From Balanoglossus misakiensis (lineage: Eukaryota; Animalia; Hemichordata), in NCBI GenBank assembly GCA_040954595.2, contig CM082582.2, positions 5,812,303 to 5,876,302 of the forward strand: a stretch of 64,000 bases of DNA, written 5' to 3'. Shown in pieces: positions 3,001 to 40,525 of this stretch. The stretch's first letter is position 1, and each line of letters begins with the position of its first letter. The notes under the pieces were generated by a model. It searched no databases. It had not been told where the DNA came from and saw nothing but the letters and a program-made list of their open reading frames with translations. A program made the translations under genes and the position numbers.

Positions 3001-3809
3001 CGGAATGATAAATAAAGTGTGACAGGATTATGATGCAAATGACAGATTTACAACCATGGGTGAAAAAGATGGATCATTTGTACGTCATAATTGAGCCGTT
3101 TCGATTAGGCTAATTGCACGGCCAGCCGATGGGATCAATAATTGTCTTGCTTGCATCGTGCTTTAGGGCGGTTTCAGTTGTTGTTAAGAGGTGGGTCGGT
3201 GTGTTGGCAACGTAAATTGTGACCCTCTCCAAAACAACAAACAATGACAGTAGGATTCTTTTATATAAAATTTGACCCTCCGCGGTAATTTTGCAAATGA
3301 ACTCTGAAGTATAGTTGTTTTTTTCAATCGTTTAATTTGACTACGGATGATTTGTCGAGTATTGCCGCCTCCAAAGTCAGGTTTGTGAAATATGACCCCC
3401 TTCCCCACTTCATCCGACCCACCGCCCCATAATAAATGGAAGCTCCCTTGATGACGTCTGTGAGATACTAGTACATGTACAAGCAGAGTGATTTTGAATG
3501 GCATTGATGAACACATATCTATAATTCATTAGGCTTAGAGCTTGCCAGATATGCGACTAAGCCAAGAAGTTCCGACTGTACCGTCTGCTAGTTATGTCTA
3601 TTCTGTTGGAAGGACTGCAGTTTAGAAAATTCGCATCGTTGTTGGCGAAGGTCTCTCCAGCAAATCCATCGGTAAAGACTGTTTCGCATCCGTTCAGCAC
3701 AGCGAACGACTGCCGCTTGATGGCATAAATATCATGCCTTAACATGATTTTGCTGACAAAATCGAACTCGCTTTATTTTTCAACCCCAGGTATTTGCTGA
3801 CACATCCTG

Positions 3810-5360
3810 ATGTTTGCCGATCTAGGATACGAAAGAAGGGTAAATGACACGGCCGATGGTTCTTTAACAGAAAACGTTGTTTCCCAAATGGAGCTAGTGA
3901 ACGGAACTCTCGGTATGGAAACCGCTGCCACAAATGTCACCAGTTCGGTAGCAGTGACGTCAACAGTGCATTTGACGACAGCGATGGACAACGATTCTGT
4001 AAGTAGCAGCAGTCTTCGGGAAGATTTGTCAACGGGCGCGTTTGCGACACCGTTCTGGGACGCAACCACTATCATGTCTGACGAAAGTGTTGTGTATTTA
4101 GAGCGGGAGAACATGGATCAGTATTTTTACAATTTTGATCAAACTGTGATCTTGACCATCGTCATGCCTGTTCTGTTGGCCTTCGGAGTGGCCTGCAACG
4201 GCGCGTTTCTCGTCGTCGTCGCGAGAAATAAGCGAATGCACACCCCGACGAACTGCTACCTGGTGAATTTGGCGGTTTCGGACGTCGTTTATCTGAGCGT
4301 CGTTGTTTCGGACAAGCTGATTCGCTACTTCTCGTCGCCTTTCCCGGCAGACTACAGTCCGTGGGGACCTCGCGGCTGTTCTTTGATAACAGGCCTCATT
4401 TTCATTCCGCACTTTGTGTCCGAATTGACCATCGCCATGTTCACGGTCGAGCGCTTCTACGCCATCTGTAGACCGCTGAAGCGCCACCGCCTCAGCGGAC
4501 GACGCAAGTCTCTCATTTTCGTGGGCGCCATCTGGATAACGTCGGCGCTTTTGGCGATACCGTGCAATGCGTTCATCAAGAAGCGGGTCTTTACCCTGGT
4601 GTGGCCGGAATCGCTGAATTCGACGACGGACTTGCCGAAGACTATAATGAAATGCGGCACCCCTCCCATTTCATTCTCCGGGGGCGCCACTCTCCAGTGC
4701 TATGCCCTTCAGGCTATCCCGTTCTTTTTCACCGCAGGGGTGACTGTCGTTCTAAACACTCGAATTATTCGCACGCTCAACAGGAGCGCCAAAACGATCG
4801 GCTCTGCTGGGGGTCACAGGGACGTGCAGAGCCGGAGACAAATTGTGAAAATGCTGATCGTCACTTCAGTGATGTTCTATGCATTAGTCTTTCCGTACTA
4901 TATCGACGACATTTTGACAGTTTTCCACCATTTCGGCTACCTAACGAACGTCAGACTACCCACTATGTTCCTTCAGGTTGCCAGATTTCTCGCCTACACC
5001 AACTCCGCCATCAACCCGATCATGTACAGCGTCATGAGTGTGAGATACCGCCAAGCCTTCAAGTCGACTTTCTGCGCATGCACGAAAGCCCAGCGGTCGG
5101 AAAACAGTTGCGCACACATGATCAGAAGCGCCGATCACGATTCCGCCGCACTCGATCAGCGCAGGATCATTGCCAAGGCCGAGACTCGATTTTCGGAAGG
5201 TTTGATTAACGAAGGGATGGTCGGGGAATCTTCAAATTCACAGGAAAATAGTGCCGATCGGAAGGACACACCGCTCTCCACTACTAAGGGCGTCTCTGTA
5301 CCGAGCATAGATGCGAAACTCCGCAACCTGGAAGTGTTTCACGACTTAGCGACGTTATGA
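3810..5360 (+). CDS. Class A (rhodopsin-like) GPCR, orphan peptide-receptor type (TRH/neuromedin-U/GHSR-like), 516 aa, uninterrupted CDS
   Basis: Seven hydrophobic helices with MHTPTNCYLVNLAVSD (TM2), TVERFYAICRP (DRY variant) and NSAINPIMY (NPxxY). Ser/Thr-rich N-terminus with NxS/T sites. A splice acceptor (tttttcaaccccag, ending 3789) just upstream implies a 5'UTR intron. Confidence 0.95.
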   Translation: MFADLGYERRVNDTADGSLTENVVSQMELVNGTLGMETAATNVTSSVAVTSTVHLTTAMDNDSVSSSSLREDLSTGAFATPFWDATTIMSDESVVYLERENMDQYFYNFDQTVILTIVMPVLLAFGVACNGAFLVVVARNKRMHTPTNCYLVNLAVSDVVYLSVVVSDKLIRYFSSPFPADYSPWGPRGCSLITGLIFIPHFVSELTIAMFTVERFYAICRPLKRHRLSGRRKSLIFVGAIWITSALLAIPCNAFIKKRVFTLVWPESLNSTTDLPKTIMKCGTPPISFSGGATLQCYALQAIPFFFTAGVTVVLNTRIIRTLNRSAKTIGSAGGHRDVQSRRQIVKMLIVTSVMFYALVFPYYIDDILTVFHHFGYLTNVRLPTMFLQVARFLAYTNSAINPIMYSVMSVRYRQAFKSTFCACTKAQRSENSCAHMIRSADHDSAALDQRRIIAKAETRFSEGLINEGMVGESSNSQENSADRKDTPLSTTKGVSVPSIDAKLRNLEVFHDLATL

Positions 5361-6932: not shown

Positions 6933-7148
6933 TCAACGCCCGTGCACGTACTTGTGAAATTCTCTAGCAATTTTAACAGTCTTAACGACTGCTTCTTTGG
7001 CTAGATCAAATATCTCGTCACCTTCATCCCCATCACCAACGCCCAATCCCGCGAATTCGTGGGCGAGGGCCGTCCCGCTGTGATCTGCATCAAAGCGGGA
7101 CAATAATTTCTCCACTGAGCCACCCATTTTCCTGGGGATTATAACCAT
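6933..7148 (-). pseudogene. Relic or orphan fragment similar to the C-terminal helix of the IFIT-like gene
   Basis: ORF ends DLAKEAVVKTVKIAREFHKYVHGR*, aligning without gaps to NLAEWSVINVSQIVREFDKYM* of the neighbouring gene. Same strand, 1.7 kb downstream; the upstream frame is closed by a stop. Confidence 0.5.
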
Positions 7149-8831
7149 GGGGGATGTTAGACAACTACAATGTAATTACAGGTGAATCAAGCTTACAGCT
7201 ATTCTTGGTATTTGTAGCGTGGGGGTCAGGCCTTGGTAACATCCGACTCAACTATGCCACTTAATGCCAAGCTTGGGCAAATATTAGGCTGGATATTTTT
7301 TTTTCAGTACCGTGGGTATTGGCGAAACCATTTGACTCAAGTTTTTGTTGGGGTGTGCACTGGAAAACGAACGAAAATTCTGGCGTTTTGGCAGGTTGTT
7401 GAGGATTGAAGAGCCTGTGGCGTCTTCCGTTTTGCCCTTAAAGTCTCCATTTGACGACGACACTATTTAAGGACTCATAAGCACCACCAGATTTGAACAC
7501 CCTCAATAAGTTAGATGGCCTGGGCAATAATTTATTAGCAACTATTTAATACACAACGAACCAAAGCAAACGAAAAAATAAACATGTATACTTCAGAGGC
7601 TTTTCCAGGAAACAATATCTATTAAACTTAGTCTTCCAAGTAACATGCATGAAAAATTCATTTAAAAATACAGTTTTCGTGAATTATTCACTGGTCGGTT
7701 TAGTCAGGATCAGATCACAAAGGCAGTGAATTATAAATATCCCGTTTATTTACAATTATCCAGGAAATATATAGCGCAAAAATTAACAGTACATTCTTAT
7801 GTGTAACAGGTTACAGTATATAAGTTTATATAAGACATATAAAGCCAAAATAAGTTTAAGGAAGCCCGGATAACCGGCGTAATTTAATGACAAAATGAAT
7901 TTTATTCAAAATGAAATGCCGTCACCCAGTCATGCTGTGCATACACTGCCAGGCAGATAAGTGACAGGTCAGCGCAACAATGGCAATCAAAGTGCATGTA
8001 CGGTCAAAGTTTGATTTATAAATCAGTCAGTTATATAAATAGAGACACTGATTTATTGCGAAAACACTCAGTGCTTTTCCAACGAATTTGCTTCGCATTG
8101 TTTGTCCGCGCCAACAACAATTTATTGCTTGTTATGACAAAATGCATTGTTCGTTTCATTTTATTTTCTGCAATTTAGCTTCTAGTGTTCTTCCGTGTAA
8201 GCTCAAAGATCAACCATAAACACTGTCGACGCCTAGATTTTTTTCTGATACTATTTCTGCTGTATCAGTGCTCCAGACATATTGTCAGTTTTTGTGTGAA
8301 AAGTTTCAGTTACGAGAAAATCACATCGGTTATCACTATGCATCATCGAACTCGCCCCGTTGGTGAAAATTGATGGTCATTCATAGCACACCATGACCCC
8401 CACCGACCACAATACAAAACAGCTGACGAAAACCAGCGTCATGACATGAGCGATCGGTAACATCGCTTTTCAAGTCTTCGAATTTCTGGTGTAAATAAAC
8501 TTAAATCCTAACCTCAAAAAGTAGTCCATCACATGAATTCCATTTGACACCATAATATGACGAACGAATCCGAGTATGATGATATCAAATGACACAATTT
8601 TAATATAGGTTATACCATATTATTTTAAATCGATATCAGAGGCTTTGCTTACCATCGTCGCCCATGTATAAAATAAAAAAAACAAAACAGATTTGTCGAT
8701 CAAAAAGTTAAGTTGTAAAATATTTATATACATGTACATATGTTTATGTACACGTAATTTGGGAACACCATTGCTATAATTTCTGGAGGATAGGAGCATT
8801 TTACTATTAGTGGGGTGGGTGAGGTCCTTCC

Positions 8832-11424
8832 TTACATGTATTTATCAAACTCACGGACTATCTGCGACACGTTGATAACGGACCATTCGGCGAGATTTCT
8901 CAAGTTTACTCGGTGAGGAATGCCGTCGATCTCAACTTCTTCTTCGTGATGCAGACGTTTGTTGTGCTTGTGCAAGTTAACAATCGAAAAGAGAAAAATC
9001 AAGTTTTTGTTCTTGTTGAAGTCAAATGCCGGTTGAAATTCAACTAGGCGCTGGAACAAATTCGGAAATCGTTGTCGGAAATCGGCCCAGTTATATTCAC
9101 CCTCTATCTTTCTTTGTAAAGTGGATTCAACCGGGGGTGATTTGTTCTTGATGTAGTAAAACGAGCAGTGGGCCCGAGGGTCTTTTATTCCGTATACCCG
9201 TTTTTGGAAATCCGACATGACGCGATCCAGAAGGCCCCTGGCTTCCAACAAAACGTCTGCCGCGTTTCGAATCAGCGCCACAGCCTCGCGGTCGTTGTCT
9301 GACAAACTCAAGAATTGTATGTATTTCTCGTGCAAGTCTGTCAAGCACCGAACGTTTGGCACCGCGATTTGCCTCAGGTCGTCTTGCAGTCTTCCCAACC
9401 GTTTAATAATCGCCCTTTGTTTTATTTCCCCTATGTGTTGTTCTATCAGGAGTGCTTCTTTTTTCCCGAGGGCCGCGACCCGTGCGCAATTTTCGAACCA
9501 AAGCTGTTCAAATTTTTCGTGGTCTTCGCACGATCTCAGGACCCTGACTAAATTCTCGGCGCCTTCCAAACTGTCGTGTTCAGCCGCGAGGGAGTAACAT
9601 TTGCGGGCTTCTTCAATGTCGCCGCCTTCCTTAAATTCCCTGCCCTGAACCAAATGTACTTCGCCTGCTAGTCTGCGATAAGGCTGTGAATTCACGTCGG
9701 GGATCGCGGCTAAGTACTTTCTAGCATTTTCGCTGTCGACGGCTTTGACATAGAGCTCGGTCAACGCGAGTGCCGCGGCCAATTTCTCGTCGTTGACCAA
9801 CTGGTAAGCTTTCTCGTAGTAGTAACAGGCCCTGTCAACAGAACCTGTCGTTTTGTATATCCACCCTAACAGTTTCAAAGCCTCGTAGTCGTCCTCGTTC
9901 GGAGACAACCGCTGTTGCATTAGACGGTCCAATCTCGACACTGCTTTCTCTCCGCCATGACTGTCTGGTTGTGCTCTGATAGCGTTTTTGTACTGCTCTA
10001 TGGCATTTGCATCCTCGTTCCTTCTGAGAAGGAAATCGCCGAAATAGAAACACGCCATTGCCCTGTCATCTCTATCTGCGGTCTCTACAAGTTGGCAATA
10101 TTTAGTTCTTGCCTGGTCGTCGTGATTCACGATGAGCGAATGCATATTCGCCACGTCGCACTTTGCCAGAAAGTTACTCCTGTCGGCCTCCACGGCCTGT
10201 TCAAAATAATCTAACGCCGAGTCAAGGTTCGATTTATCTCGCCTTCCCCCGCCTTTAAAATATCTATCTCTGTAAACGCAACCGATCTGACGAAGAGTGA
10301 AACTTGAATCGCACTCAGAATGGCGAGCATTGTCAAGGAGTTTCAGCGCCTCGTCGTACATTGACATCAGCCGGTAAACCTCTCCGGCGCGCTGGACGAC
10401 AACAAAGTTATTTCCGTCAAGTTCGAGCGCCTTTTGTACCTGCGCGTATGCCTCCATCGTCGAACCCTTTCTGACAAGTCGTCTTGCCAAAAGAATTCGC
10501 GCCAGACCATGCCTGGGGTTGAATTCTAAAATTTTCCTCAGATTTTGCTCGATTTCGGAAACTGCTGTGACGCCGTTTTGAGCTTCGGGGGATGGTTTCT
10601 CGGTTTTCTCACAGAAACGCGTGTATCCGAACAGCCAATCAACGTTAGACGGGAAAACCTCCAGGGCTTTTTCATAACACAAAATCGCCTCGCTACATTT
10701 TGAACGACCAAACCATTGGAACGCAAAGGCTTTGTGGGCGTTGAGGTAAGCTTCCGCCTCCGTCGATAAATTTACGCACTTTTTTAACTCGCGTATCAGA
10801 CGATCTGCCTCATCTATTTTACCCAGTTTTAAATAAACCCAGGCTTTGTCTGCGAGGAGGATGACCCTGTCCCCCTCGGGCCCGTCATGGTCAAGACCGA
10901 CTCGTGTTTTGGTGCTGGCTTGCAGCGCTTTGTCAATCCATTCCAGGGCCAATGCTAGCGGATTCTTGCTCCCATTGCCACTGAGATCTGACATGTAGAG
11001 GTATGCCTTCAGGGCCTTGGCTGCCACGGGCATCTGCTCTGGACTGTAGTGAATGTGGTGGTCTATGTAGTCCATTGCGGTCTGCGGGTAGAAAATCATC
11101 TTCTCATGAGAAGGAATATGAGACATAAAATTCCTCGGTAACGAGGTTAACATTTAAAAACACCTATGCTTTTCAGATCGATCGAGAGAGGGGGAGGGAG
11201 AGAGCACATAGTATAGAACCGTGATATTTGGTGCCAAGAATTGCTCGATTGGGGACGGTAAACTGTGAGAGGTGATTTAGCGTTTGCTATTTTTTTGCGG
11301 AATCGAAGGGACGGGGTGGTTCCAGTACCTTGAAATCGCGACCACAATTTTCCTCCAGTCCCCACACGAAGTGACAGGGGTACTCTTCTAAGTGGGATTC
11401 AAATCCACTGCTAGCTGTAGCCAT
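8832..11424 (-). CDS. IFIT-like tetratricopeptide-repeat protein with an extra C-terminal (HEPN-like) domain, ~781 aa; coding exons 11424-11329 and 11081-8832
   Basis: Exon 1 encodes MATASSGFESHLEEYPCHFVWGLEENCGRDFK (IFIT CHFxW motif). Donor AAG|gtactg and acceptor ttttctacccgcag|ACC join it in phase 0 to TAMDYIDHH... VILLADKAWVYLKL and HKAFAFQWFGRSKCSEAILCYEKALEVFPSNVDWLFGY match the IFIT N-terminal TPR pattern, and many more TPRs follow. A probable 5'UTR exon lies upstream (donor near 11776, acceptor near 11430). Confidence 0.88.
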
Positions 11425-12859: not shown

Positions 12860-17669
<4,810 letters not shown>

Positions 17670-27490: not shown

Positions 27491-28825
27491 CTATATTGTG
27501 TCGGCATTCAATTCAATCCCGTCACGGGATGATTTTCCGCCGAGATTTAAACTTCTTCTACTTCGACGATGTTTGACGACATATACCACGACGAGGGTGA
27601 GCAGCACTCCCACCGCGATACCCGCGAGGACCAAACCGATGACAAGCCCATCTCCGGCCGCATCTGTCAGTGAAAATGCGGCATCGCCATCTGATCTCCT
27701 CCCTGTATTCGTCGAAGTTGAGATTGTTGACATCGGCACAGACTGTGGCCGCGTTGGTACATGGAAGGGAATGTCGACTGTCACCAACGCGCTGGCGCTG
27801 CCCGTCCCAATAATATTTCTCAATTCACACTTAACCGAGTGAAACCCATTGTCCTGTGGACCAAAGCTCAAGATACGAAGATACATTCCATACACACTGA
27901 GTTCGAACCTGCCTCCACTGTTCACGGCGTCACCATCATAATACCAAAAAGGGACTGTAACTAGTGGATTTGCGTCTTGGTTGCACTTGAACTCTACGAC
28001 GTCATCGTCCGTCACCGTGACATCAGTCTGGTCGAGTGTCACTGTTGGCGCGTACTGGACATCGAAAGATATGTGACAGATTCTGGCCGATGGCAAACCG
28101 GGATGTTGAAGGTGACAGCGAAAAATTAAGTTCGGGCCGTCACTCTGTGATGGTGTCCAATCAGAAATTCCGATTTGATAGTTATTATAGCTATTGTCAA
28201 CATCTGGCGAGCTCCAAAGTTCCCCAGACCTATACCAAAATAACCCAACAGCCGGGATACTTGGACCAGAAGAGCAATACAGACTGTATCTACGATTTGC
28301 TATAACGGTTGTGATAGGATCTCTCTTGATGTTCCTGTTGTTCGAATCGATTACTTGGCACCTTGGATATTCTTCTGGTGGGACGTATATGTTGACTGCT
28401 GCCAGCCTTGAGCTTCCATTGGGTACAACAGTGTCGTTTTGCCACCATGTCGCTGCGCAGTGATAGCTTCCACTGTCGAATACAGCGGTGGCAGCTGAGA
28501 CTGATCTCACTTGAAGCGTGTAAACTCCTTGGGTAGAGTACGAATTTATAAAGTATCTGTCTTGATCAGTGTCCACGAGATGAAAGACGTTGCCCCTGAA
28601 CGTGTACTCATCGCTGATGATGTCGTTGTTCTTAAACCACGACATCTTCTGAGACGTCTCCAGGGAATTCGGTGACACCTGGCACTCCAAGTAAAACGAG
28701 CCCGTCGTAGAACTTGCGTACGGGTACGCCTGCGTCTCGTCTTCTGGTTGGCGCATAAATTCAACTCCTCCACCCGGCACGACAGCCAATCCGAACAAAA
28801 TGCCCAGTAGAAATAGAATGCGCAT
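27491..28825 (-). CDS. Intronless type I Ig-superfamily membrane protein (three Ig domains; nectin/kirrel/CD22-like architecture), 444 aa
   Basis: Signal peptide MRILFLLGILFGLAVV; Ig motifs LECQV..MSWFK..DSGSYHC, LYCSS..LFWYR..FRCHLQHP and FKCNQDANP..WYYDG..VKCELRN; S/T-rich stalk; TM segment LVIGLVLAGIAVGVLLTLVVVYVV followed by KHRRSRR. Confidence 0.93.
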   Translation of the reverse strand: MRILFLLGILFGLAVVPGGGVEFMRQPEDETQAYPYASSTTGSFYLECQVSPNSLETSQKMSWFKNNDIISDEYTFRGNVFHLVDTDQDRYFINSYSTQGVYTLQVRSVSAATAVFDSGSYHCAATWWQNDTVVPNGSSRLAAVNIYVPPEEYPRCQVIDSNNRNIKRDPITTVIANRRYSLYCSSGPSIPAVGLFWYRSGELWSSPDVDNSYNNYQIGISDWTPSQSDGPNLIFRCHLQHPGLPSARICHISFDVQYAPTVTLDQTDVTVTDDDVVEFKCNQDANPLVTVPFWYYDGDAVNSGGRFELSVYGMYLRILSFGPQDNGFHSVKCELRNIIGTGSASALVTVDIPFHVPTRPQSVPMSTISTSTNTGRRSDGDAAFSLTDAAGDGLVIGLVLAGIAVGVLLTLVVVYVVKHRRSRRSLNLGGKSSRDGIELNADTI

Positions 28826-30090
28826 TGTTTTTAGTCCTGTCTCGAATCCTTATAACCGAAAGAGGGGTTCAGCACTGACACATACGCACAGCGACTTCGG
28901 TCACCGCTATTTCAAATTGGAAAACTCAGTTCGACTGCGCCCCGTGCTTCTGTTTTCTCTCCCGATAAATTTGCGGTGATCCGCGTTTTTATATTTTACT
29001 GGCTTTGTGCTAGGTAACGCCTTTTGAGAATTTTTCACATCCGGGGTCATCATTCGGAGGTGAATGCCACTGTGCACACGTACACTGTCACTCTTCAAAC
29101 GACATTAATAGAAGTGCCTTGCATATCTGGCAATTCGCACGTCCCACTTTAACCACCAAACGTCACTTACAGAAGCTCTTAGCATTAGCCATCACCAAGA
29201 GATGGTATACCAACAGATATTCCGCTATCACAGTTCTGGCTTTACTTCGTGCTAGGGGGTCAAATCATATTATAATAATTGTAATCTGGATTTGTAATAA
29301 ACACTTCACTGTAGTAAGAGATAGATGAAATTAATTTCGACACCTCACTTATAGTAAGAGATAGAAGAAATTATATGTGAACTGTATTTCATGACTTCTT
29401 TTGGCCAAACATTTCTGTCTACTTTGTAGAGTATACAAATTCTGTGTAAAGAAAATGAGGTCATTAATTGTTACAGTATTAGGCTGAATTCATTGCCCAA
29501 AACGATTCAAAGTAGGTCAAATTACAAGTGAATTTGCAGTACTGATACTCAACCATTAAGCTCGACTTCACACGTTTCCTAAACAAATCAAACGCATCGC
29601 AACTGGACTTATCTTTAATCTTGTTATAATGTGAAATGTGAGCTACTATTAAACTTGGTAGTTTTTATATGAAAACAAGGCGCATTGCAGACTTCTGGCC
29701 CTTACTGTATGGAGAGCCAAAAATCTACCAATTCTGGGGAATGGTGTCTTTGTTACATGTTTTCCCAACAATACCACGAATAAAAATAAGAAAGTTATGC
29801 AACCGCTGGCATTCTACGAACATATGACTATAAATGGTATCAATATGATTATTACAAAACGGGCAATTTTGTCAATATAGCCAGCCGAATGTAAATAGAC
29901 ACCTGTGGATATAGCACCGTGGAGGAAGTTGAATACACCCTAACCCTAACCGTTGAATATACCCTTAGGCCTACATGTCAAAAAACAAACGTGACCATAT
30001 TTTTTGTTTGTTATGCCAATCAACAAACACACAAACAAACAAACAAACAAACACAATAAAGGCACAGGGGAGCGCCCCCCTGGGCTCACT

Positions 30091-30499: not shown

Positions 30500-34001
<3,502 letters not shown>

Positions 34002-35631: not shown

Positions 35632-36648
35632 CTAGACGGAGCAGGCGGCATCCCACGAGGTCACGATGACCTTTCTGGTGTGCCTGCTGCCGACGACGCA
35701 AATGCCAACCGGCCTTACCACCCCATCTCGATCGTAGTCCACGCAGCCCAAAAAGTTGCCGATAATGTCGAATGTCAATAAACGGTTGCCCCGGTAGCTG
35801 CAAACGTAAACAGTCCCGGTGCGGTCGATGGCGATCCCCGTGGGGTCGAAGCACCAGCACCCGTTGCTGTGGGTCGGTCCGAAAGCGTACAGAAACTCGC
35901 CGCTCTCGGTGAAAACCGCGACGCGCTTGTTGCCCCGGTCGCTGACGATGACGTTGCCCGTCACACCGTCGACGCAGGCGCACCAGGGAAAGCTGAGGCG
36001 GTCCCTCCCGAAGGAATCGATGAGGTTTCCTTCGGGGTCGCAGATTCGGACGCAGTGCGACCCGTTGTCGACGACATACACCTTCTCGTCGGACGGGCTC
36101 AAGGCAATGCCGATCGGGTTGACGAATCTCCCCTCCCCGAAACACCGAATCACTCTCCCGGCTGCGCCGCAGACGACCACCTGTTTGTTTCCACAGTCCG
36201 TAGTGAAGATGTCTCCGTTTTTGGCGACCGCAGAAAACTTCGGCCGAAACGCGGTCTTGAAGCCGGTCATTCTGAACACGCGTCGCGGGATGCCGTGGAG
36301 ATTGTACGTCCGCAGCTCACCTTTGTCGCTGTAGTCGTTGACGAGAAGGTCGCCTCTTGAAGTCACCGCAACGCCGTACAGGAGGTTTTTAATTCTTCCC
36401 AGTATCGTCCCTCTCAAACCAAACAGGTGAATTGTCGGAGGCGACGTTCTTTCGAAGTCTTCGCTCTGTTCATGAGTGCCGCTGGCTGACGATCGCGATG
36501 ACGATGTGTCCGGCGTAGAATCTGATTCAGGCGATGATTGTTCAACCGAAACTGGTACGGGCGACGAAGTCGATTTTTCCGCCGGTGCCTCGGTTGTGTT
36601 TACGGGGGGCAGTGTCGGCCTCCTTCGTACATGTATGCGGGTCGCCAT
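35632..36648 (-). CDS. Stand-alone NHL-repeat beta-propeller protein (TRIM2/3-like NHL domain, no RING/B-box seen), ~338 aa
   Basis: Repeats YGVAVTSRGDLLVND, GDIFTTDCGNKQVVV, FVNPIGIAL..VYVVDNGSHCVRI, FPWCACVD..VIVSDRGNKRVAVF, PTGIAID and RPVGICV. First in-frame ATG at 36648 in good Kozak context (gcaATGG); the track's 36702 start is TTG. The N-terminus is S/T/P/E-rich. Confidence 0.88.
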   Translation of the reverse strand: MATRIHVRRRPTLPPVNTTEAPAEKSTSSPVPVSVEQSSPESDSTPDTSSSRSSASGTHEQSEDFERTSPPTIHLFGLRGTILGRIKNLLYGVAVTSRGDLLVNDYSDKGELRTYNLHGIPRRVFRMTGFKTAFRPKFSAVAKNGDIFTTDCGNKQVVVCGAAGRVIRCFGEGRFVNPIGIALSPSDEKVYVVDNGSHCVRICDPEGNLIDSFGRDRLSFPWCACVDGVTGNVIVSDRGNKRVAVFTESGEFLYAFGPTHSNGCWCFDPTGIAIDRTGTVYVCSYRGNRLLTFDIIGNFLGCVDYDRDGVVRPVGICVVGSRHTRKVIVTSWDAACSV

Positions 36649-37477
36649 TGCACACACCTGACCGATATCACTGTTTTGAACCGTCCTCCCGAAGTCGTGC
36701 AATTCCTTTACACAGGTTCGTCTATGATCAAGCCGCGCCCCAAAGACGAACAGAACTTGACACTCGGAGATGACAATACCCTCTTCAATAATCGAATCAC
36801 TTATTGTATGGAAACAACTTCCAAATGTCTACAACTTAACTCTGTAAAATCTCTAGCCACAACACCTTCCCGCATAAGCTGCCCGTTCAACTGTGCGATG
36901 TTATACTTGTATACAAAACTACCTAGCATGTCACGCCTTCTTTAATCAAAGTCCAATATGCGCCATAATTGGTTAAGGTACGGGTTTCTAGAGTAGCCTT
37001 CTGAAGTGTGTTTCATTTCGAGTGCAACCCGGCCTGATTCCCGGCCACTTGAGCATTAGGTTAAAGAATGGGGGCGCACCCAAATAGCTCGGTTGCTAGA
37101 ACTTCAAGAAGCTGAGGAAAAGAGAAAAAATGAGAAGAAAAAAAACCCACGTCACGGTAAGGTTGTCTGGTCACCTGGTGCGGTTTCTGTACTCACGATG
37201 ACAAATTTTCTAATTAAAAGATAATAATGAACAAAACAAAACCCATGATTTTAAATGGTAACTTTAATGTCCCTGTGTCTCTTCACGGACGCAGCAAAAC
37301 TATTAGTTCAACAGAAGTTTATTTCAGGATCACTGTGATATTGTAACCAGCATAAGTTAAAGAGTCGACAGTTGCAAGTCGCAAGGTCTGTCTTACAGGT
37401 AAAACTGTTTCAATGCATGAGAAATAAAACGATGAGAAAAATACCAATTGTTACATTTAATTTACGTGCGTTTCAGT

Positions 37478-37810
37478 GAAAATTCGCAAAGTCGAAAAAT
37501 CGTAATTTTTTGACAATTTTCATGAGCTATAACCCATGATTTTTCGAAAAAAATGCAGAAATTTTGAAAATTCGCAAAGTCGAAAAATCGTCGATTTTGA
37601 CAATTTTCATGAGCTATAACCCATGATTTTTCTCAAAAAAAAAGAAATTTTGAAAATTCGCAAAGTCGGAAAATCGTCGATTTTTGACATTTTCATGAGC
37701 TATATATAACCCATGACTTTTCTCAAAAAATGCAGAAATTTTGAAAATTTGCAAAGTAGAAAAATCGTCATTTTTTCACAATTTTCATGATCTATAACCC
37801 ATGATTTTTC
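37478..37810 (+). repeat. About four diverged copies of the 88-bp satellite
   Basis: gaaaattcgcaaagtcgaaaaatcgtc..ttttgacaattttcatgagctataacccatgatttttc units, in the same orientation as the main array. Confidence 0.93.
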
Positions 37811-39593
37811 GAGGGACTGAATAATTGACGGGTTGTTCATCTATGCAAATTACTACAAGTACCTGACTCCAGATAAGTTTCTATATTCACCACCGCTGCA
37901 CTGCGGTGCAAAATTCTCACACTGGCTGCGCACGATATGACTGTTCGCCCTTTAGATATTTATATTACCGAGAATTTTGACACATCATGCATATATTGTG
38001 TCGCAAATTCCAGAACATTCGCCTAGGCCATACATTATACAAGGTAGAACAAAAGAATTATAACAAAACAAGTTTGACAAGTGGCACTACATGACGCAAT
38101 GACGCGTGTTCGCTGCTGATTGGTTGGAACCACCTGGACCATCTCCACTTGGATATTTCCGTCTAGCCTTCCCCGTGCATTTTCATAAGAGAGTCAGACG
38201 GCCATGCTGCTGCACGGACCACGAGAAGATGCGGAGAACTCTGGCCCCAAAACAGAGTTTCTCCGCTGGATAGTTTTCATGACGACAGCGGTAAGTAAAG
38301 TAACAGAAGTAGAGACATTTACTCAAATTTTGAACAGAAACATGGGTTATTCTGTGGCGAGTTACGGACAACTAAAAAGTCAGACGGTACTTGTCTGTTA
38401 CACCACGGAATTGAAAAATTGGATGTAATGCGCAGTCAGACAGCTCGGGTCAGCGCTTCGCTGCGTTTTATTCACAAATTCGACTCTTTCGCGTTACTCA
38501 ACTTGAGATGGTACGGTTTATAAAGTTTAGACAAGTCGGTGTTGAAGCTCTACTGGTGGGCGGCATGTTTTTTTTCACATAAAAAGGTAGTTTTTCGGGA
38601 AAGGGGAGGGGGCTGCAACGAATTACTAGCGGGTTCGGTGAATTGACAGCGGGCTCACGTGTAGTCAGCGTGTTTTCGAATTGTGAGCGAATGCAAATTT
38701 TGTACTATGCATGTACTACCAGTCAATAGCAAAAATAAGCTTTGAAACGCTTCATTTGGAACAGTTTTTGCGTGTGTCCGTGAAGTCTTTGCCAAAAAAT
38801 TGTTGAAGTTTAATATGTTCCGCTTGGCTGTGGGCCTAAAATTGAAAATGTGTGAACGTGGATAGTGCCAGGCTGGGGTTTAGGGGTACTTGTCTGTCAG
38901 CGAAGCCCTAAAATATTTGCCGTCGCGTATGCTGTACAATGTGCGAATGAACAACAGTTTGGCGTACGGTGACCCAAGTAGATATGTGGTTTCGCGTTTA
39001 TGGATAGACTATTCACTTCCCTTTCCTCGTTTTACAGACTGATCCCGGATTTCAACGACCAAGCCACGCAGCTGGAGGATTGTGCCTGTACGTTCCACGT
39101 GGATGCTATGATGTTACAAGCATGATGTACAAGTAAGCGGTATTAGCCAAATTTTGGGCAATTTTTAAGATCTTTCAACGATTCTGACTGGTGCCGGTAG
39201 CCAGTTCAGCGAACCGATTTTGAACAACCCTGAAAAATGCAACAACACGGATGCTATATGCGGATGTCATTTGAAAGTTTTGAAACCAACATGACTACAT
39301 GCTCGGTGTATGGGTCATTTTTGTTACGGCACCAACAAGTTCATCGACTTTGAATTCTTCGAAAGGTGCTCGTTGTTGTGAGTGTGTGTGCATGGTTCGT
39401 TTGTGTCACGGTAAGTTGAACGGTATATTTGGGCCATGCAGCTAGACTACAATGAGGTGAGCGTTTGTATGTTCCATGGCTGAATGAAGACCAGTGGAGG
39501 AGTGGTTTCATAACAAGTAAGTTATAGACATAAATAAAACCCCCGGTGCGGGTGGGTCCCATCCCTCAGACCGTCAGTTAATACTTAATACAA

Positions 39594-40525
39594 GTTTTTT
39601 GAGATATGTTATCTTTCGTCATTATTCAATAAAAAAAATTAAAAACATGCACGCACTCATAATACTGAGTAGTTTATTTCCGTACCGATCATCTTCCCGT
39701 CGCGTATATAGATAATGCAGTTTTTTAGATATGTTATCTTTCGTCATTATTCAATAAAAAATATTAAAAACATACACGCACTCATAATACTGAGTAGTTT
39801 ATTTCCGTACCGATCATCTTCCCGTCGCGTATATAGATAATGCAGTTTTTTTAGATATGTTATCTTTCGTCATTATTCAATAAAAAATATTAAAAACATG
39901 CACGCACTCATAATACTGAGTAGTTTATTTCCGTACCGATCATCTTCCCGTCGCGTATATAGATAATGCAGTTTTTTTAGATATGTTATCTTTCGTCATT
40001 ATTCAATAAAAAATATTAAAAACATACACGCACTCATAATACTGAGTAGTTTATTTCCGTACCGATCATCTTCCCCTCACGTATATAGTTAATGCAGTTT
40101 TTTTTAGATATGTTATCTTTCGTCATTATTCAATAAAAAAATTAAAAATATGCACGCACTCGTAATACTGAGTAGTTTATTTCCGTACCGATCATCTTCC
40201 CGTCGCGTATATAGATACTACATTTTTTTTAGATATGTTATCTTTCGACATTATTCAATAAAAAATATTAAAAACATGCACGCACTCATAATACTGAGTA
40301 GTTTATTTCCGTACCGATCATCTTCCCCTCACGTATATAGTTAATGCAGGTTTTTTTTAGATATGTTATCTTTCGTCATTATTCAATAAAAAAATTAAAA
40401 ATATGCACGCACTCGTAATACTGAGTAGTTTATTTCCGTACCGATCATCTTCCCCTCACGTATATAGTTAATACAGATTTTTTTTTAGATTTGTTATCTT
40501 TCGTCATTATTCAATAAAAAAATAT
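39594..40525 (+). repeat. Tandem repeat, ~126-bp unit, about 7.3 copies
   Basis: gatatgttatctttcgtcattattcaataaaaa... recurs at 39603, 39728, 39854, 39980, 40107 and onward. Confidence 0.96.

Follow-up and report, generated by a model that had tools for sequence, protein, structure and literature searches.

A gene on the minus strand of the Balanoglossus misakiensis genome encodes an IFIT-homologous tetratricopeptide (TPR) protein with a C-terminal domain of predicted HEPN fold, and this fusion of IFIT and HEPN-like parts is conserved across hemichordates and echinoderms. The architecture has apparently not been described before. That acorn worms and echinoderms have this arrangement in common suggests that they likely rely on a single protein for both detecting an invader and cutting RNA. 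We put the probability that it is a ligand-gated RNase of innate defence, with RNA as ligand and a non-canonical HEPN domain as predicted effector, at roughly 45%.

The gene extends from 11424 to 8832 of the window, i.e., of the whole stretch of 64,000 nucleotides analysed, has two exons and yields an intact protein of 781 residues. Coding exon 1 (11329..11424, minus strand) consists of 96 bases. It starts with ATG, encodes 32 residues, among them a CHFVW that represents the N-terminal C-H-F-x-W motif of IFITs, and ends with ...CGRDFK before a GT. A phase-0 intron of 247 bases (11082..11328, minus strand, GT..AG) follows. Coding exon 2 (8832..11081, minus strand), with the AG acceptor preceding 11081, contributes 749 residues and the stop; it lies in an open frame of 773 codons (minus strand, 11153-8832). 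Joined, the exons form one open frame of 781 residues with a single terminal stop and no internal one, and three annotated hemichordate proteins continue across the junction (CGRHFK/TAM, CGRDFK/TAM and CDRDFK/TVV), which upholds the spliced product proposed in the first-pass annotation. The position of the junction is inferred from homology only. That the fusion is a prediction artefact was rejected, since one exon encodes both the TPRs and the C-terminal domain, and five named species have the fusion. With one ISRE-like pattern, 10 matches were found in the whole window versus 10.95 expected by chance, and none between 11424 and 13640, upstream of the gene. A frameshifted remnant of a paralogue, the C-terminal end of the motif-less type discussed below, lies 1.7 kb downstream of the gene (6933..7164, minus strand).

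The TPR region (9753..11424, minus strand; residues 1 to about 475) is collinear with full-length human IFIT1 and IFIT5. What had at first been called IFIT-like TPRs is a full-length IFIT homologue (IFIT1/IFIT5 at E about 1e-28): among solved structures, IFIT1 (E 2.8e-28 to 3.1e-27) and IFIT5 (8e-27) occupy the first five places. Natural TPR proteins outside the IFIT family reached 1e-05 at best, and this gap of 23 orders of magnitude to IFIT1 led us to reject a merely generic TPR similarity. A relative from Ptychodera, P0005, was aligned with IFIT1 over residues 5 to 470, C-H-F-T-W included, at E 1.1e-35. The closest relatives in the databases are hemichordate: Ptychodera flava (57-58% identity), Glandiceps talaboti (50%, full length) and Saccoglossus (40%). 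Typical traits of the IFIT family are present in the 781-residue protein, namely collinear TPRs over about 460 residues with C-H-F-x-W, and two exons with nearly the whole reading frame in the second; that of a TPR-only protein is absent, a C-terminal non-TPR domain being present. An extra helical, TPR-like linker (9411..9752, minus strand; residues about 476-589) is common to the ambulacrarian homologues and missing from the vertebrate IFITs aligned.

A tree of 24 TPR regions was unrooted and had no outgroup, hence it gives no order of events. The 7 vertebrate IFIT rows stand on one side of a branch with support 100/100, the Balanoglossus protein groups with three hemichordate proteins (100/99), and the TPR parts of the paralogues diverge widely. 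Left out were P0021, P0024-P0027, P0033, P0034 and P0036-P0042, which have little or no alignable TPR region, and three non-IFIT TPR matches.

The C-terminal domain (8835..9410, minus strand) comprises residues 590-781, its structurally aligned core about residues 608-781 (9356-8835). The first-pass annotation had placed a non-TPR domain at about 9330-8832; the domain stands, its start has to be moved slightly upstream, to about 9356-9410. The stretches it had quoted are found in place, ADVLLEARGLLDRVM at 9260-9216, CSFYY at 9167-9153, FPNLFQRLVEFQPAF at 9068-9024 and LIFLFSIVNLHKHNKRL at 9002-8952. Searching 1.84 billion proteins with the domain yielded 20 homologues at E <= 0.001, and all 18 that carry a species name are hemichordate or echinoderm (Glandiceps 3, Ptychodera 4, Amphiura 7, Anneissia 3, Asterias 1). 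Pfam TPR matches (E <= 0.01) occur in 16 of the 20, an IFIT-type x-H-[FA]-x-W start in 9. A profile search extended to shorter proteins brought 7 further fragments of the domain, and among 7 vertebrate IFITs the profile found none (best E 1.3).

Several polar residues are kept among the animal domains at 24-55% identity, as seen in a 20-row alignment that excludes the frameshifted P0003 and the truncated P0034. Helix 2 carries the motif D641-x5-R647-x3-D651 (9225..9257, minus strand), with R (15/20) or K (2/20) in the R647 column and D (14/20) or N (4/20) in that of D651. Q715-P716 (9030..9035, minus strand) is nearly invariant in the animal and the prokaryotic families; in the animal rows the counts are 20/20 and 18/20. 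The end of the last core helix displays V733-N734-x-x-K737-H738 (8964..8981, minus strand), a non-canonical HEPN motif with His738 as the predicted catalytic residue. N734 is found in 15, K737 in 16 and H738 in 17 of the 20 rows; the exact N-x-x-K-H is present in 15 and missing from 5. The survey of R, D, N, K and H that had been recommended thus speaks for conservation.

The Val that had been noticed at the canonical Arg position is indeed there. Residues 5 to 7 before H738 are V733, I732 and S731, none of them the motif Arg, and the V733 column has Arg in just 1/20 animal rows. As a caveat, however, the observation weighs less than had been feared, because the whole family is devoid of that Arg. 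For the same reason, and with an upstream Arg conserved, Val733 was rejected as a sign of decay; R647 may be the substitute for the absent motif Arg.

Not all copies are intact. The closest Ptychodera models are frameshifted or stop short of the motif, and a motif-less clade of paralogues is found in two species, Glandiceps and Ptychodera (P0020 and P0031, support 100/99). A starfish protein has two tandem copies of the domain, one intact and a second that is motif-less; they score E 4.5e-26 and 2.8e-09 with a profile built without the starfish row. This coexistence fits an active/dead pairing but does not show it. The Ptychodera copies appear to be clustered on one chromosome, and so do those of Glandiceps.

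A DNA pattern for W-L-x2-L-x2-L-x-N-x-D-K-H, designed on the basis of the animal rows (the D and the following R only partly so), led to a prokaryotic sister family. It marked 10 loci in viral contigs, 3 of which are family members, and 28 in GTDB, 27 of them in open frames of 185-348 residues. The proteins, 250-300 residues long, share the signature G-[DE]-x3-N-L-R-S-x-L-D, FP, QP and N-x-D-K-H-R. Kinship with this family, which carries R-x-x-L-D, QP and N-x-D-K-H, supports the likeness to bacterial proteins that had been suspected. QP was outside the search pattern, and it lies within 40 residues upstream of the motif at 23/27 loci versus 5/54 control windows. An alignment of 26 rows (23 of the 27 GTDB loci plus the 3 viral ones, after removal of two near-duplicates and two broken frames) contains the helix-2 acidic residue in 26/26, R in 22/26, D in 26/26, Q in 23/26 and P in 24/26 rows. 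Arg is present in 0/26 at the canonical position.

Comparison of the animal with the prokaryotic profile gave a probability of 95.5% and E 1.5e-8, figures that are partly circular, the rows being motif-selected. Both profiles were therefore cut before the motif; they still matched with 60%, E 8.7e-5 and a score of 31.5; the controls, 30 column shuffles and one reversal, did not exceed 14.3. Overall identity between the animal and prokaryotic domains is about 19%, yet both share conserved His, Lys, Asn, Arg and Asp residues. Five members came to light without the motif filter; among them, the His and the L-R-x-x-L-D of helix 2 occur in 5/5, Lys in 4/5, Asn in 3/5 and an Arg five before the His in 0/5. 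The animal profile misses single filter-free members (best E 1.1 among 117 frames) and, in consequence, the link rests on the profile-profile comparison. By this comparison, the animal domain is homologous to a prokaryotic family that often adjoins mobile elements.

The prokaryotic family is patchy (4/301 genomes of one phylum, the seed genome counted in) and found no convincing match in Pfam, PADLOC, NCBIfam or PDB; its plasmid and phage matches are all annotated 'hypothetical protein'. Among 138 neighbouring frames at the 27 loci, raw counts with no background rate to set them against, were IS1595 transposases at 6 loci, another transposase at 1, integrases at 2 and restriction-modification or Shedu genes at 2; many neighbours were housekeeping genes or unannotated. 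One member resides in the temperate Gordonia phage ZiggyZoo, in an accessory region between the tail genes and the integrase. A plasmid member is flanked by helicase and DNA methyltransferase genes.

How could such a protein work? In our preferred scheme, the TPR solenoid would bind non-self RNA via a remodelled channel, not via the triphosphate contacts known as K150 and R253 in IFIT5, and the bound ligand would bring two HEPN domains together. In the HEPN RNases characterised so far, two motifs have to be juxtaposed (10.1101/760058, in part). The composite site, in which R647 or K737 would take the role of the motif Arg beside H738 and N734, would cut viral or host RNA, and this cleavage would shut down translation; paralogues without the motif could act as regulatory partners. 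RNase L KEN, PrrC and Las1 depend on the motif Arg (PMC3710099; 10.1101/760058, both in part), and some HEPN families without this Arg may use other basic residues, a replacement proposed for Parep1/8 (PMC3710099, in part). Counted against the gated RNase were the absent Arg, prokaryotic kin with no function annotated, the middling Z scores, a pocket score of 2/12, the absence of an upstream match to the one ISRE-like pattern, the 5/20 animal domains without an exact N-x-x-K-H and the frameshifted or shortened models of the closest Ptychodera relatives.

The domain might also have the HEPN fold without being an enzyme. As an RNA-binding or dimerisation module, it would then extend the IFIT clamp, and sequestration of RNA would block translation as in vertebrate IFITs. 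We deem this unlikely, though deserving of serious consideration. The motif Arg is, after all, absent in 19/20 animal rows, and the structural matches HI0074 (nucleotidyltransferase substrate-binding), human sacsin and Roquin are regarded as non-catalytic. The preservation of the motif-less clade (P0020 and P0031) in two species further implies that the domain is useful without the His. The polar residues shared by animals and prokaryotes at so low an identity are at odds with such a role: inactive HEPNs are expected to be without any conserved polar residues (PMC3710099, in part).

The nature of the ligand has to be judged from the TPR part. Twelve RNA-contact positions of IFIT5 were taken from PMC9677429 (in part), placed by hand count on an alignment with the IFITs and read in one of 23 rows. 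IFIT5 E33, T37, Q41 and K150 correspond to T33, Y37, H41 and W155 of the Balanoglossus protein, Y156, R186, Y250 and R253 to C161, K191, V259 and Q262, and Y254, R260, H287 and Q288 to R263, R269, R296 and Q297. Two of the 12 are identical and 1 is conservative; K191, R269 and Q297 are the ones kept. K150 and R253, the two strongest phosphate contacts of IFIT5 (PMC9677429, in part), do not vary among the 6 aligned vertebrate IFITs. Because they are replaced by W155 and Q262 here, an IFIT5-like recognition of 5'-triphosphate RNA, to which the first-pass annotation had pointed, is unsupported and cannot be assumed.

In the ambulacrarian rows, the K150 column contains W (7/12), R (4/12, some echinoderms among them) or S (1/12), and that of R253 has Arg in 0/15. 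The R186 column has K or R in 15/15 of the rows having a residue there, R260 and Q288 are mostly retained, and an Arg sits one position past R253 in 8/9 hemichordate rows. A basic RNA channel may thus persist in the ambulacrarian TPR region. A single-sequence fold of the 749-residue exon-2 product (pLDDT 42.5) provided no usable model of it.

These replacements, together with the wide divergence of the paralogue TPR parts, could also mean that a HEPN nuclease is gated by something other than RNA, the TPR part sensing a protein, e.g., a viral one, or a small signal. Bacterial TPR-effector defence proteins may sense such ligands. The basic residue throughout the R186 column and the largely kept R260 and Q288 fit a retained basic channel instead, and the Arg next to R253 in hemichordates and at the K150 column in some echinoderms point in the same direction; we consider a non-RNA ligand quite improbable.

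As far as models tell, it is highly probable that the C-terminal domain has the HEPN fold. Modelled with the 20-row alignment (pLDDT 92.1, pTM 0.86), it consists of helices 21-34 and 40-73, an insert (94-105, 111-114 and 116-125), a helix at 131-148, a hairpin and a final helix at 170-189. The model thus displays a HEPN trait, the up-down four-helix bundle whose helices 2 and 3 are separated by an insert, at middling structural scores. The His, number 149 of the model, lies just past helix 131-148, which ends with K737, and the polar N734 precedes it by four residues; in HEPN domains the motif sits at the end of helix 3 (PMC3710099, in part). The conserved acidic and basic residues of helix 2 (D641, R647 and D651) are there too, with a spacing unlike E-x3-[KR].

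In a structural search of 48,161 chains, ranks 1-19 were all HEPN-type, every Z being below 8. HI0074 came first (Z 7.8, rmsd 3.4, 119 residues aligned). Ranks 2-19 include 4nqf, 1wwp, Las1 (three times), HepT-type toxins (three), Csm6 (two) and Roquin (two), as well as the sacsin HEPN, LsoA, TT1696, YutE, AbiA and RnlA. The first clearly unrelated bundle appeared at rank 20 with Z 5.9, and metavinculin scored 6.3 in a second structural comparison. The class of the 19 derives from the title in four cases and mostly from literature or a cluster match in the others. HI0074, SO_3166 and TT1696 (structures 1jog, 5yep and 1ufb) and Roquin we take to be HEPN-type. Csm6 was classed by a named-cluster match in the Atlas; 1wwp, YutE, Las1, LsoA/RNase LS and AbiA are listed as HEPN in PMC3710099 (in part).

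The Atlas, a language-model resource, returned RiboL-PSP-HEPN as top cluster (0.91, 167 shared features, no common Pfam), and for the Glandiceps domain named clusters of HEPN types at 0.81-0.87, which serve as leads only. The best structural and language-model matches hence agree with the HEPN-like domain proposed in the first-pass annotation. The structural check it had advised split: Foldseek found nothing at E <= 0.001 in PDB and BFVD, the ranked comparison of chains the HEPN-type structures. Neither the domain nor its alignment produced a consistent match in sequence searches of Pfam, PADLOC, NCBIfam, PHROGs and PDB, no HEPN Pfam model matched, and a word-based search limited to the C-terminal region gave a score to 0/603 candidates. 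The fold assignment is based on how the middling scores (Z <= 7.8) rank, with no single decisive match. A generic four-helix bundle unrelated to HEPN and with another function, e.g., protein binding, is very improbable: it would explain the failure of the HEPN Pfam models and a best Z of 7.8, which according to the tool may reflect a common arrangement only (bundles of p130Cas and vinculin reach 5.8-6.3), but hardly the HEPN-type chains at the first 19 ranks, the HEPN clusters from the independent Atlas or the conserved N...H at the HEPN motif position.

With vertebrate IFIT1 and IFIT5, the Balanoglossus protein has in common the collinear TPRs over the whole IFIT length, C-H-F-x-W, a reading frame mostly in exon 2 and membership in a multi-copy family (PMC3688568, in part). 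It differs by about 310 extra residues ending in the HEPN-like domain and by the replaced K150 and R253. Exon 1, which here encodes 32 residues, in mammalian IFIT genes mostly consists of the ATG plus two bases (PMC3688568, in part). For zebrafish IFIT5A, a tail of 265 residues has been noted (PMC3688568). The canonical R-x4-6-H RNases, i.e., HepT, Las1, Csm6, RnlA/LsoA and RNase L KEN, resemble the animal domain in the predicted four-helix fold, the helix 2-3 insert, the His after helix 3 and the polar Asn four residues earlier; unlike them, it lacks the motif Arg and has a Lys before the His and a conserved QP. The prokaryotic proteins, in contrast to the animal ones, stand alone, with extra sequence on both sides of the core and no TPR fusion in 27 loci.

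TPR-HEPN fusions of other families are already known from DZIP3 and LA2681 (PMC3710099, in part). Like the Balanoglossus protein, DZIP3/hRUL138, LA2681, CXorf38-dsRBD and RNase L combine a repeat or RNA-binding sensor with HEPN, with a role in defence proposed or known, but they belong to other HEPN families that wholly or mostly keep R-x4-6-H (PMC3710099, in part). The word 'IFIT' is absent from PMC3710099.

If the domain is active, the protein would be a direct sensor-effector for animals without interferon, another instance of a nuclease of prokaryotic type serving animal immunity, and an example of arginine-less HEPN chemistry common to animals and a prokaryotic family. Type-I interferons have no clear hemichordate homologue, and the effectors of hemichordate antiviral immunity are an open question (PMC10210618, in part); in the accessible portion of that paper, the main text contains neither 'tetratricopeptide' nor 'TPR' and one supplement no 'IFIT'. 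Rather unlikely, yet worth stating, is a scenario in which IFITs predate the vertebrates and started out as single-chain sensor-RNases, after an early deuterostome had fused an IFIT-type RNA clamp with a HEPN nuclease from the mobile prokaryotic family. Hemichordates and echinoderms would then have kept active and dead copies side by side in tandem sets; the IFITs of vertebrates would be truncated, nuclease-less descendants under the control of interferon.

The origin of IFITs has been placed with jawed vertebrates and interferon, and no true IFITs were reported in acorn worm, lancelet or sea squirt (PMC3688568, in part). A 2026 review names, in its accessible part, vertebrate IFIT homologues only (PMC13197388). 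Our literature search, mostly outside subscription journals and in partial texts, turned up no publication that deals with IFIT-HEPN fusions or with IFITs of Ambulacraria. The full-length homologues in hemichordates and echinoderms date the family, on homology alone, to early deuterostomes. Several of the ambulacrarian relatives already bear the automatic NCBI label 'IFIT-like'.

The closest relatives of the window protein are two Ptychodera flava models, P0003 and P0005, both of which lack the N-x-x-K-H motif of the predicted HEPN domain. Compared with the window protein, P0003 shifts its reading frame at around aa 696, and the model of P0005 stops at 536 aa. Pseudogenisation or an assembly error may account for the missing motif. 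In Asterias amurensis (P0032) the domain is present in two tandem copies (aa 691-849 and 928-1098), the second being devoid of N-x-x-K-H. P0035, a divergent IFIT-like protein of 828 aa with the C-terminal domain, has an R-x4-H-like stretch at the motif position; its branch is long in the unrooted tree of 24 TPR regions.

Downstream of the main gene, a frameshifted remnant (6933-7164, minus strand) corresponds to the C-terminal ~70 aa of a motif-less-type paralogue. Its best matches are P0020 and P0031 of the motif-less clade (E about 1e-06). No upstream part of this paralogue was found between the remnant and the main gene.

No vertebrate match to the C-terminal domain emerged from the search of 1.84 billion representatives (E <= 0.001). 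By its published description, zebrafish IFIT5A resembles the window protein in total length, and its model has a long unconserved C-terminal tail, aa 509-773 (PMC3688568).

The prokaryotic HEPN-like family (L011-L037, L039, L040, L042-L044) carries N-x-D-K-H-R, and IS1595 transposases adjoin it at 6 of 27 loci. The family is itself a candidate for a toxin or for defence cargo.

The IFIT-like gene lies head to head, at about 2.2 kb, with an alpha-L-fucosidase gene (plus-strand exons 13641-13958 and 14204-14344). Also on the plus strand are a Rhodopsin-family GPCR (3801-5360) and a short-chain dehydrogenase exon (30824-31282); an Ig-domain membrane protein (27491-28849) and an NHL-repeat protein (35632-36828) occupy the minus strand. 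A 20-kb satellite array (42776-63063; GC about 27%) comprises about 231 copies of an 88-base unit with 96% matches. A few related copies are found at 37477-37810, and another repeat, of 126 bases, at 39593-40521.
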